A program made the position numbers and the translations under genes. Shown here one piece after another: positions 56,469 through 59,713 of a DNA stretch of 64,000 nucleotides; position 1 is the first letter of the stretch; the number at the start of each line of letters is the position of its first letter. The DNA is taken from positions 2,304,001-2,368,000 of the forward strand of contig CBDFJF010000001.1 of assembly GCA_965248265.1 (NCBI GenBank), read 5' to 3'. Under the pieces are notes generated by a model, which was not told where the DNA came from, did not search any database, and saw nothing but the letters and a program-made list of their open reading frames with translations. Origin of the DNA: Candidatus Latescibacterota bacterium. GTDB taxonomy: Bacteria; Latescibacterota; UBA2968; UBA8231.

Positions 56469-57662
56469 TTGCTGAAAAATGGACAAAAAGCCCGAAAAAA
56501 GACCACTTTGAAGCAGCCTTCCAGAAAAATCCGCCCGTGGTACACAGGTAAAACGCCCCCCGAAGAAGATGTAATAGGGATCGTCGACCGCATCGACCCT
56601 GATGCCCCCATACTCTATGACCAGGGACAAGAAGAGAACACGGGCGAGTACGCCGACGTCGTCAAGGAGCTGTACGGCAAGATGGATCTGCTCAAGCGCA
56701 GCCCGGACGAATTCCGCACGTGGACGGACGAAGACGGTTATCTGATTTTTTATGAAACACTGCTGGACTTCGCCGAGTCCGAAGTCAAGGACCGGGTTCA
56801 AGTCCTGCAGACCCTGGGAGCCTTTAAGTTCAGAGCTGCTGCTGGACCGGACGAAAAGAAAAGCCTGATCTCGGCCATCTTCACCGATGCCGACGACAAC
56901 GAAGACCCGAACATGGTCAACAGCACCAGAGCGCGGCGGCTGTCGCAGATCTGGTCTCCAGCATCTGATTCGCTTCTCGACTACATCATCTCCCGGCCGG
57001 CCCAGGCCGGACGCGTTCTCTCGGACCGCATCAGTCCGTCGAATCGCGAGCCGTTCCGCCTGATCGGCCATCCGTTCGCTGAAGTCCGCAGCACCGACCT
57101 GATGCCGCTGAAGGAAGCCAAGATCATAGCCTACGAGCGCGACGGGGAGATCCACCTCAACACCGGCGTCCGCACCGTCCTGGAAAACTGGGATCAGGAC
57201 ACCGCCGCTATCGGCGGCGTCGAGCAGGTTAGCCTGTTGGATACCCTGCTGCTACACGAGCTCATCGAACTGGTGTTAGACGAAACCAATCCGGAATACA
57301 CGCCCCTGCACTCGCACATCGTGGCCTGCTCCTTTGAACGCTACCTCAAAGGAACCTTGTTGTCCGTGGCCGTGGAGGACTTTTTCTTGACCTGGCCGCC
57401 AATGTCAGATGCGGAGATTGAAGAGCGGAACGCCAAGCAGATGGCTCAGGAACTCGAAGAAGCCAGCGCGATGTTTGCCGAAGAAGAGATCCCGGATATG
57501 GAAGATGAGGACCTGGACGGACTGCCCGTTGACAGCGATATCCGGCGCCGCAAGAAGAAAAAGAAGAAGAAAAAAATCTCTGGAGGGAAAGTCCCTGGAG
57601 AGAAAGTCCCTGAGGGGAAAGTCGTGAAGAAGAAGGTCAAGAAAAAGAAGAGAAGAGAGTGA
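56469..57662 (+). CDS. Hypothetical protein with an acidic stretch followed by a poly-Lys tail
   Basis: 397-codon ORF with host-like codons; LLHELIE motif; C-terminal RRRKKKKKKKK and three GKVP-like repeats; start uncertain. Confidence 0.75.
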   Translation: MLKNGQKARKKTTLKQPSRKIRPWYTGKTPPEEDVIGIVDRIDPDAPILYDQGQEENTGEYADVVKELYGKMDLLKRSPDEFRTWTDEDGYLIFYETLLDFAESEVKDRVQVLQTLGAFKFRAAAGPDEKKSLISAIFTDADDNEDPNMVNSTRARRLSQIWSPASDSLLDYIISRPAQAGRVLSDRISPSNREPFRLIGHPFAEVRSTDLMPLKEAKIIAYERDGEIHLNTGVRTVLENWDQDTAAIGGVEQVSLLDTLLLHELIELVLDETNPEYTPLHSHIVACSFERYLKGTLLSVAVEDFFLTWPPMSDAEIEERNAKQMAQELEEASAMFAEEEIPDMEDEDLDGLPVDSDIRRRKKKKKKKKISGGKVPGEKVPEGKVVKKKVKKKKRRE

Positions 57663-57710
57663 CCGATTGTGCCCTGGGGAGCCCGTAGTTCCACGGGCTC
57701 CTAGTGGTAA

Positions 57711-58043
57711 TTACTCCTCGCTATCGACCTCAGCCTCAAGTTTTAATCTGCGCAAGGCCAATGTCTGGGCCGCAAGATCCGCCTCAGCGGTCCGAATCTG
57801 CTCACACAACGATCGGGCCTCTGGACTTTCGTCCAGGGCGTTCGCTTCACCATCCAATTGCTTGTAGGCGATAACTCCGAGCGCTGCCAGCAGTCGTGAC
57901 AGACGAGCTTTGGTAGCGGCAATGTCGAGGCGGGCTTTGCTCTGCTGGGTGAGTTCCTCAGCCTTGGCCACGGCCACGGCAGCACCGTCCTGAAGGCCCT
58001 TCAACAGGGCTTCCCACATCCCCTCTGCTCGCTCCGTCGCCAT
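57711..58043 (-). CDS. Hypothetical helical protein
   Basis: MATERAEGMWEALLKGLQDGA...KAEELTQQSKARLDI...LGVIAY; the longer ORF-track version overlaps rpsR. Confidence 0.7.
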   Translation of the reverse strand: MATERAEGMWEALLKGLQDGAAVAVAKAEELTQQSKARLDIAATKARLSRLLAALGVIAYKQLDGEANALDESPEARSLCEQIRTAEADLAAQTLALRRLKLEAEVDSEE

Positions 58044-58080
58044 CGTGGTCTCGCAGTTTGCCGGCGTGATCTGCCCGGAC

Positions 58081-58302
58081 CTAGCGAGTGTCGTTGAGGG
58101 AGTACGGCAGCAACCCCAGAAACCGCGCTCGTTTGATCGCTTGTACGATGCGCGTCTGCTGCTTGCGACTGGCTCCAGTGCGGCGCGCCGCGTCGATTTT
58201 GCCAATCGGATTCAGGTAGCGGACAATGATGTCCAGTCGCTTGTAATCGATCTCCTCTGGCTTGAGCTTTGCCGTGAACTCTTTTCGATTGAACCGTGCG
58301 AT
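58081..58302 (-). CDS. rpsR: 30S ribosomal protein bS18 (Cys-free form), ATC start; missing from the ORF track
   Basis: Manual translation (M)ARFNRKEFTAKLKPEEIDYKRLDIIVRYLNPIGKIDAARRTGASRKQQTRIVQAIKRARFLGLLPYSLNDTR, with IDYK, GKI..RRTG and AIKRAR..GLLPY. AGGAG lies 8 nt before the ATC; no in-frame ATG/GTG/TTG before the upstream stop. Confidence 0.93.
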   Translation of the reverse strand: MARFNRKEFTAKLKPEEIDYKRLDIIVRYLNPIGKIDAARRTGASRKQQTRIVQAIKRARFLGLLPYSLNDTR

Positions 58303-58354
58303 GATATTCTCTCCTGTGTAATCGACCGAGGCACTGGCATTCCAGCAGATCAGT

Positions 58355-58383
58355 AAATTACTCCTTCACCCCTCGAGTGTCAA
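58355..58383 (-). promoter_or_regulatory. Sigma70 promoter for rpsR
   Basis: Minus strand TTGACA-17 nt-TAATTT. Confidence 0.65.
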
Positions 58384-58390
58384 CGAGGAC

Positions 58391-59713
58391 TTGGCTCCAG
58401 GGCAACTCGCCGTGTCAAAAAACTCACGCATCGCGATCACCTGGGCTCTAGCCGGCAGTTTGCTCACTCTCCTTGCCGCTCATCCCTTTCTGTTCGAGAG
58501 AAATGATGCCCTCGCTTGGGTGCTTGGCGGCCTGATCACCGTTTCGATAATCGTAGCTGGTGCTGAGTGCATTGCCAGAATCGTTCGCCGGCAATGGTAC
58601 GCTACCCCACCAAACGCACCTCGCGTCTGGCACCGACATCTGCTGGCGGTTTCCATGGCCGCGTTTGCCGGTGGAATGGTTCTGTCGTTCAGCGCCAACG
58701 AGCATACCTCTTTGTCCGGCCTGCTGCCGACGACATTCGGCCTGTTGTCCCTGGGATTGGGACGACTGCTTGGGACCGACGAGCGCGCAATCAGCCTGTT
58801 GGCCTGCGCCGCTGTCGGCTCGGGCTCCGTCGTTGCGTGCTACGCCGTGTGCCAGTACCTCGACCTCGACCCGCTGCCTGCGACGACCGCGTTCACCGAC
58901 CGCACTGTTGCCGTTTTTGAGAACCCGAATCATCTGGGCAGTTTCATGGCAGCCCTCCTGCCCATCGCGCTCGGAGGCTTCCTGCTTTCGTCTCGCCTGC
59001 GTTTCCACGTAATCTGGTATCCGGTGACTGCTCTGTTGCACGCCGCGCTACTGCTGGCTGGCAGCCGTGGCGCCTGGGTGGGTTGTCTTGCGGGATTGGC
59101 CGTCCTGGTGTGGACAGCGGCGACCCAGATGCGAAGATCAGGAGGCCGCTGGCATCGAGGACGGATTCTGGCCATGGTCGCGACACTGGCCGCCGTTACC
59201 TTGTGGCTTGGCCCCACCAGAGTCATGGAGAGTGAGCGCGGTGTTGTCACTGTCGGCCAGCGAATATTGAGTACGGCCTACGCCGCCGCCCCAGGGACTG
59301 CGGGCGACCCCACACTCAGCCACCGCTACTTCCTGTGGCATGTCGCGTGGCAGCTGATCCTGGACCGGCCAATTGTAGGTATCGGGCTCGACCGGTTCGC
59401 TGAGGATGCGGAGGACACCACCGAAATGTGGGAACGCTATGGCACCTGGCACGCCCATAACGAATACCTCAACTACTGGGCGGAGGGCGGCCTGTTGACC
59501 CTTGTCGGATTCCTGGGAATGGTGGTCTCTGCATTCCTTCGATCCAGGAAGCATGGTCTGGGTCCGGCGGCTGCCTCCGGAGCTGTAGCTTCGATATTGG
59601 TACATGCCCTGGTAAGCTACCCTCTCCATATGCCAGTGACGGCGATTCTTTTCTGGGTATTACTTGGTATCATTAGCACGGAAGAGGATGCTACATCAAG
59701 GAACTCCTATTAG
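58391..59713 (+). CDS. O-antigen ligase (Wzy_C)-family membrane protein
   Basis: FENPNHLG, GSRGAW, RPIVGIG and HAHNEYL motifs; many TM helices. Confidence 0.88.
   Translation: MAPGQLAVSKNSRIAITWALAGSLLTLLAAHPFLFERNDALAWVLGGLITVSIIVAGAECIARIVRRQWYATPPNAPRVWHRHLLAVSMAAFAGGMVLSFSANEHTSLSGLLPTTFGLLSLGLGRLLGTDERAISLLACAAVGSGSVVACYAVCQYLDLDPLPATTAFTDRTVAVFENPNHLGSFMAALLPIALGGFLLSSRLRFHVIWYPVTALLHAALLLAGSRGAWVGCLAGLAVLVWTAATQMRRSGGRWHRGRILAMVATLAAVTLWLGPTRVMESERGVVTVGQRILSTAYAAAPGTAGDPTLSHRYFLWHVAWQLILDRPIVGIGLDRFAEDAEDTTEMWERYGTWHAHNEYLNYWAEGGLLTLVGFLGMVVSAFLRSRKHGLGPAAASGAVASILVHALVSYPLHMPVTAILFWVLLGIISTEEDATSRNSY

Follow-up and report, generated by a model that had tools for sequence, protein, structure and literature searches.

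A sole, cysteine-less bS18 gene detached from the rpsF operon, with a probable AUC start codon conserved across a family of Latescibacterota

How translation begins on the gene of an essential ribosomal protein that has no canonical start codon is the question raised by a locus of Candidatus Latescibacterota, within a stretch of 64,000 nucleotides that we refer to as the window. On its minus strand lies a reading frame for ribosomal protein bS18 (rpsR; 73 codons plus TAG, 58081..58302) that is absent from the window's list of open reading frames, which was made with the common start codons. The frame is closed upstream by an in-frame TGA (58366..58368) and reads TGA(58368-58366) ... ATC(58305) ATC(58302) GCA CGG ... 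TAG(58083-58081). Translated from the TGA, it gives 21 non-conserved residues followed by IARFNRKEF...LLPYSLNDTR, and it contains no ATG, GTG or TTG back to TGA 58368, as a sequence-only reading of this DNA had noted. The near-cognate codons between this stop and the conserved core of the protein are solely CTG 58353, ATC 58350, ATC 58305 and ATC 58302. The last of these (58300..58302), which the sequence-only reading took as the start, is preceded on the same strand by a Shine-Dalgarno (SD) motif, AGGAG (58311..58315), and the spacing of 8 nt given for it was confirmed. In a related strain's contig, C replaces the T of the TGA at 58368, so this upstream stop is not itself conserved.

The 73-aa product scored 60.6 bits against the bS18 equivalog model TIGR00165 (cut-off 38.75) and 59.9 bits against PF01084 (cut-off 21), consistent with the earlier claim of an intact bS18 frame. 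At E ≤ 1e-5 it matched 65 distinct PDB sequences. Residues 2-70 or 4-71 aligned to solved bS18 chains of 75-81 residues, the best solved chain was 5myj_AR (E 1e-11), and E. coli-type bS18 chains aligned from residue 8 on. The N-terminus that initiation at the ATC would give, M-A-R-x, agrees with the solved bS18 chains in length and beginning. In the host genome (7.3 Mb in 2 contigs, 92% complete), only the gene at 58081..58302 matched PF01084 above the cut-off; the next match, at 11.4 bits (E 2.85), was noise, and there was no second intact rpsR. Judged from these sequence comparisons, this is the only bS18 gene found in the host genome and probably the functional one. Public gene calls in close relatives were over-long or too short (100 aa in P0001, 61 aa in P0028). 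Three NCBI entries (P0005, P0006 and P0013) are 73 aa long and begin MARVNRKEF, and P0006 is the frame of locus L004 with Met replacing Ile at position 1; a start at the AUC position has thus already been called by the NCBI annotation pipeline. A literature search, with subscription journals outside its coverage, turned up nothing published about rpsR starting at AUC, nor about the start codons of Latescibacterota.

The absence of a canonical start could be an artefact of a one-base assembly error, or the gene could be decaying while an intact paralogous rpsR lies elsewhere. Nothing beyond that absence speaks for either, and we give this explanation almost no credence: the gene is single-copy, its frame is intact and above the cut-offs, and the ATC recurs both in independent contigs and throughout the family. 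We compared assembled contigs, rather than raw reads, from public runs over 57700-58700, and at 58300-58302 they show ATC, not ATG. A source-like DNA contig was identical to the window over this region. An independent seawater DNA contig covering 57979-58493 was 94% alike, with 30 differences, none of them at 58300-58302, and a contig from a metatranscriptome library covering 58093-58322 had 8 differences, again none at these bases. Because neither the independent DNA contig nor the RNA-library contig differs there, a one-base assembly error at 58300-58302 is excluded. RNA-library contigs may derive from DNA contamination, and the ends of two of them, at 58322 and 58294, are uninformative on the 5' end of the transcript.

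We searched 168 genomes of the phylum for bS18, 76 of them from the window's family, and found a match in 71 of the 76; the five genomes without a match are 58-94% complete. The codon aligned with the window's start is ATC, not ATG, in 67 of the 71 family loci (66 scored by script and L155 by eye, as ambiguous bases broke its alignment anchor), a count that represents far fewer independent events because family members share ancestry. One further locus, L130, has ATA at the aligned position and ATC one codon earlier, which brings ATC or ATA to 68 of the 71 family genomes. Loci L018, L020 and L024 have AAT or AAC at the aligned position and an ATG about 20 codons upstream, which produces an N-terminal extension; their bS18 proteins also carry a C-terminal tail. 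ATG was found at the aligned position in none of the 71. In a tree of infC, the gene for initiation factor IF3, rooted on the sister family, the genomes of L018, L020 and L024 form one clade (100/98) that is nested within the ATC bearers (supports 80/83 and 80/92). The tree rests on one gene and 173 columns, and the nesting supports of 80-92 are moderate. Since the ATG-extended clade is nested in this way, ATC looks ancestral to the family and ATG looks like a single later change.

The frame upstream of the ATC is not conserved. A stop-closed frame without an upstream ATG, GTG or TTG is present in 25 of the 67 scored loci (26 of 68 counting L155), with the upstream stop just 2-5 codons before the ATC in L013-L017, L022 and L155, and in the 42 loci that do have upstream canonical codons their distances are scattered and unconserved. 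Among 15 genus representatives, in-frame amino acid identity rises from 0.18 in the 10 codons ahead of the ATC to 0.37 in the 9 codons that follow it, a stop fell within 10 codons upstream in 3 of the 15, and the upstream value of 0.18 mostly reflects the SD motif translated as Gln-Glu. The distance from the GGAG-type core to the start was 7, 8 or 9 nt in 29, 17 and 21, respectively, of 67 scored family loci. SD motifs are in general use in the host genome, where their spacing peaks at 7-8 nt and the 16S tail includes CCTCC. The conservation of codon, SD motif and spacing in 68 of the 71 family genomes is, on these alignments, more than chance would be expected to give. We therefore consider it highly probable that AUC 58302-58300 is the real start of rpsR.

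Another start remains to be weighed, at CTG 58353 or ATC 58350 behind a second AGGAG (58365-58361), or by a frameshift from an out-of-frame ATG at 58340. This AGGAG lies 7 nt before CTG 58353, and a 42-codon ATG-started ORF overlaps rpsR in another frame. But the upstream frame is unconserved, with early stops and the low identity given above, the out-of-frame ATG is missing from loci such as L015 and L004, and the second AGGAG falls within the spacer of a conserved promoter-like motif, which together make initiation elsewhere very improbable. The motif consists of a -35-like hexamer, TTGACA (58378..58383, minus strand), and, 17 nt past it, a -10-like box, TAATTT (58355..58360, minus strand), about 40 nt from the AGGAG at 58315-58311. 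The sequence-only reading had described it as the gene's own promoter, and it is indeed present; judged by eye, it recurs as TTGAC(A/T)-17-TA(A/G/T)(T/C)TT in no fewer than 13 of the 16 family sequences that were aligned, which represent several genera. A scan with the sigma-70 consensus did not call it upstream of rpsR because TAATTT agrees with TATAAT at only 3 of 6 positions. Its conservation in the family supports a putative rpsR promoter here. Transcription from it would begin near 58348, so that CTG 58353 and ATC 58350 would fall at or before the 5' end of the mRNA.

An Rfam search of window positions 57600-58800 at E ≤ 1 gave no match, and the presumed 5' leader and start folded no better than shuffled sequences (z 0.19). 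In one large genus of the family (L134-L158), a GC-rich hairpin of the type GCACCCGC-CCAA-GCGGGTGC, with variants, directly precedes the TTAAAAAGGAGC-N6-ATC of rpsR and may either belong to the leader or terminate an upstream unit.

In the sister family, rpsR lies in the order H+-PPase - rpsF - rpsR - rplI in 6 of 6 loci and abuts rpsF. The sequence-only reading had remarked that the window's gene is detached from the usual rpsF-ssb-rpsR-rplI operon, and the genome bears this out, with rpsF about 650 kb away. The old operon site (L193, G000:C1:3012367-3015642) now reads H+-PPase - rpsF - DUF2232 membrane protein - rplI; the bS6 encoded there has a Glu-, Ala- and Gly-rich tail of about 100 aa. 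Neither rpsF nor rplI was found beside rpsR in any of the 71 loci of the window's family. Of 31 further loci from elsewhere in the phylum, 23 have part of rpsF and/or rplI no more than 300 nt away from rpsR, the eight exceptions being seven loci of one family and L169. In another family of the phylum (L179-L185), rpsR starts with GTG (ATA GTG C/TTG AAC...), and no piece of rpsF or rplI was found within 300 nt of it.

At its new location, rpsR is followed in the window by a co-oriented gene for a 110-aa coiled-coil-like protein without a Pfam hit (57711..58043, minus strand), 37 nt past the rpsR stop, and is flanked upstream by a divergent gene for a Wzy_C (O-antigen-ligase-like) membrane protein (58391..59713, plus strand; PF04932, 74.5 bits). 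Further along, a 397-aa ORF without a Pfam hit (56469-57662, plus strand) encodes a protein with a long Lys/Arg-rich C-terminal tail (RRRKKKKKKKK...KKKVKKKKRRE). We compared these surroundings with 23 other family loci having 1.5-kb flanks. A divergent Wzy_C-type membrane gene was present in 15 of the 23, a BMC-H (microcompartment shell) gene followed rpsR in 18, and a homologue of the small coiled-coil gene followed rpsR in 14, usually behind BMC-H. The usual order in relatives is rpsR, then the BMC-H shell gene, then the PspA-like coiled-coil gene. No BMC-H gene lies beside the window's rpsR, and a tblastn search of the host genome with the relatives' BMC-H proteins found none at E ≤ 1e-5.

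The protein has changed as well. As the sequence-only reading had pointed out, the Zn-binding cysteines are missing: the window's bS18 has no Cys in its 73 residues, and the same holds for every bS18 of its family in our tree. The remaining bS18 proteins of the phylum in the tree have 2-4 Cys (mostly 3-4, at CxxC-type positions), except those of L188 and L190 with none. Outside the window's family, bS18 begins MNRGR(V/L)KVC..C, and in the loci that we read its gene starts with ATG, or with GTG in one family. The cysteine-less family proteins group as a single clade, which has a long branch (1.25 changes per column) and falls outside the cysteine-bearing clade of the remaining phylum. With 75 columns this tree is weak; it neither indicates an outside group as donor of the cysteine-less rpsR nor shows descent from the cysteine-bearing clade; the copy may have arisen by divergence, by duplication long ago or through transfer. 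In one genus, two genomes (L160, G023:C59; L161, G158:C109) have a second, divergent cysteine-less bS18 paralog with an ATG start, on a long branch inside the family clade. The sequence-only reading had also considered a Zn-independent paralog. The lack of cysteines, against 3-4 in the rest of the phylum, agrees with the first part of this idea, but as the sole bS18 gene of its genome the cysteine-less rpsR is a replacement and not a spare paralog.

To place the weak codon of rpsR in context, we turn to infC, which is established to start with AUU or AUC and to be repressed by IF3 via this codon (PMC5499595). The host infC (G000:C2:3116092-3116610, plus strand; L194 1480-1998) begins with AAGGAG, 6 nt and ATC GCA AAA, and has no canonical start before the conserved core. 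Wherever a family locus reaches the infC N-terminus, the aligned start is ATC (24 of 24 loci), as it also is in the sister family (5 of 5 loci); two of the family loci have an ATG or TTG two codons upstream that abuts the SD motif. The host has an ordinary initiator-type tRNA, whose anticodon is CAU and whose anticodon stem is GGG/CCC, and only one tRNA-Ile(GAU). Another tRNA gene with anticodon CAT (C1 complement, 1584226-1584300) has an initiator-like 5' end and a weaker anticodon stem, over the first 50 nt that were compared.

Weak starts elsewhere in the host genome were sought in two ways. A genome-wide scan for SD-preceded ATC codons upstream of the first canonical start gave 100 observed against 130 expected, and a second scan of SD-preceded codons gave 22 each for ATC, CTC and GGC, with no enrichment; both scans are crude and noisy, and a handful of genes would escape them. 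In seven host genes picked by hand, the Pfam domain begins before the first canonical start. The clear cases are nusB and a GFO/IDH/MocA oxidoreductase, and the marginal ones are LigT, an HpcH aldolase, a phosphohexomutase, XseB and an EgtD-like methyltransferase. The six besides nusB (L225-L228, L230 and L231) have an SD-preceded ATC at the expected N-terminus, some with margins of 3-8 residues. In nusB (G000:C1:2683912-2684469, plus strand; L229), no ATG, GTG or TTG occurs until 35 residues inside the Pfam domain, and the start may be an ATT with AAGGAG 7-8 nt upstream or the preceding CTG. Its relatives told a different story: an in-frame canonical start lies upstream of the anchor in 20 of 20 scorable relatives, mostly an ATG about 20-25 codons before it, with 10 further loci left unscored because the anchor motif was not reached. 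We therefore rejected nusB as a family-wide weak start; its odd start is either private to the host genome or an error. Of the three genes followed through the family, rpsR, infC and nusB, the weak codon is kept in rpsR and infC only. Because a few other host genes also seem to have no canonical start, weak starts in this genome may be less strictly confined than a regulon of two genes would imply.

What does the AUC do for rpsR? A slight balance of probability, in our view, favours a near-cognate start that is under selection, is driven by the SD motif and renders the synthesis of bS18 sensitive to IF3. The well-spaced AGGAG would position the ribosome at AUC 58302-58300, and the ordinary initiator tRNA would read this codon to give a protein that presumably starts Met-Ala-Arg; in E. 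coli, AUC yields 1-2% of AUG output and the N-terminal residue is still Met (10.1101/063800). The history behind it may have run as follows. The family ancestor would have lost a cysteine-bearing, ATG-started rpsR between rpsF and rplI, and its role would have passed to a cysteine-less rpsR that sat in another place under a promoter of its own. In the simplest mechanism that fits the observations, this gene, once unlinked from rpsF, gained the same IF3-discriminated start as infC, and selection would retain AUC as a near-cognate start. Since IF3 rejects AUC-type initiation complexes, bS18 output would most likely track free IF3 relative to 30S subunits, and, with infC also on AUC, it would follow the signal that sets IF3 output. 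Such a shared signal would set the output of both bS18 and IF3 and would replace the operon-based coupling of bS18 to bS6. The sequence-only reading had raised a tie between bS18 and initiation stringency. The retention of AUC across the family and the AUC of infC favour that tie, and dependence on IF3 is what we infer from them.

The main rival to IF3-sensitive synthesis is that the AUC is real but has no IF3-specific role, being either a simple throttle or an accident fixed when the gene moved. On this reading, the strong SD motif and promoter would compensate for the weak codon, and AUC would be kept since AUG would over-produce bS18. The rival is made plausible by the many simultaneous changes at this gene, namely relocation, cysteine loss and the branch of 1.25, by the several other host genes that appear weakly started, and by the one subclade that reverted to ATG and survives. 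Yet ATG is one C-to-G change away from ATC and not one of the 71 loci has it at the aligned position, the only other family-wide AUC start that we found belongs to infC, a known IF3-controlled gene, and nusB, put to the same test, has ATG in most relatives. On this evidence we regard a role unrelated to IF3 as rather unlikely. The E. coli efficiency of 1-2% sits oddly with a protein needed at one copy per ribosome; this lineage may read AUC well, and if it does, IF3 sensitivity need not matter.

A further alternative, by analogy with other systems, is a feedback on ribosome composition, in which 30S subunits that lack bS18 or are immature on the platform would escape IF3 proofreading and prefer the AUC of rpsR. 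In this way a bS18 deficit would be self-correcting, with the rpsR mRNA sensing the completeness of the 30S platform. Assembly-defective E. coli 30S subunits are reported to bind IF3 weakly and to initiate at non-canonical codons (PMC6868393), in Bacteroidota, a related phylum, ribosomes without bS21 are reported to drive rpsU translation, and the authors of the latter work suggest that bS18-depleted ribosomes may act likewise on rpsR of Bacteroidales (PMC13000457). That the window's rpsR is monocistronic at its 5' side and has a special initiation signal would fit such a circuit. But these sequence features fit plain IF3 control equally well, the host uses SD motifs generally, unlike Bacteroidia, and no conserved leader structure or known RNA family was found upstream of rpsR, so that we hold this feedback to be improbable.

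Whichever of these holds, the sole gene of an essential ribosomal protein on a codon worth 1-2% of AUG output is a natural case for asking whether weak starts are regulatory or accidental. The twist at this locus is that gene relocation, loss of the zinc site and adoption of an IF3-type start codon coincide, and these coincident changes provide a testable idea for how the balance of ribosomal proteins may be rewired. There is also a practical side. Standard gene finders shorten, extend or miss rpsR, which may affect marker-gene sets for the phylum.

Cysteine-less bS18 has precedents: Makarova and colleagues reportedly distinguished in 2001 between cysteine-less (C-) and zinc-ribbon (C+) forms of bS18. 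In the known cases, the C- bS18 accompanies a C+ copy as an additional paralog for zinc starvation. The PDB chains matched by the window's protein include 'S18 C-' and the mycobacterial bS18A/bS18B. The window's protein shares with the known C- form the lack of cysteines; it differs in being the sole copy, with no C+ partner in the genome.

Conserved non-canonical starts in housekeeping genes are likewise already known, from infC, pcnB and Deinococcus genes. With infC and the AUU of E. coli pcnB, rpsR has in common a near-cognate AUH start behind a good SD motif that is kept across relatives, and IF3 is described as discriminating against start codons of the AUU/AUC type (PMC5499595). Unlike infC autoregulation, any such control of rpsR would act in trans and would not be autogenous, its product being a ribosomal protein. 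In Deinococcus, dnaA starts with ATC, rpsL (uS12) with CTG and infC with ATA (Baudet et al. 2010; PMC2830850). As at our locus, these are housekeeping or ribosomal genes whose non-canonical starts are kept among relatives and mis-called by gene finders. There, in a cultured organism, the starts were proven by N-terminal proteomics, whereas the evidence for rpsR here is comparative; the gene (rpsR), the codon and the phylum also differ.

Two further systems bear on how bS18 output might be matched to need. In E. coli, the S6:S18 complex acts on the rpsF leader (PMC4647458), and the common theme would be the matching of bS18 and bS6 output. Here, rpsR is unlinked from rpsF, and Rfam searches around rpsF in the host and in one sister-family genome (E ≤ 1) returned only a chance isrG-like match on the wrong strand, with no leader match on the relevant strand. 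The second system is the autoregulation of Flavobacterium rpsU by ribosomes lacking bS21 (PMC13000457), where, as in our family, the gene of a platform protein has its own unusual initiation signal. The Flavobacterium signal is an SD motif, in an organism that otherwise ignores such motifs; that of our family is a weak start codon, in a user of SD motifs. If the feedback on ribosome composition were true, rpsR would provide a circuit like that of Flavobacterium rpsU, with the stringency of start-codon choice in the place of the SD motif. Under the same condition, rpsR and infC would make up a small regulon gated by IF3, dating from the departure of rpsR from the rpsF operon.
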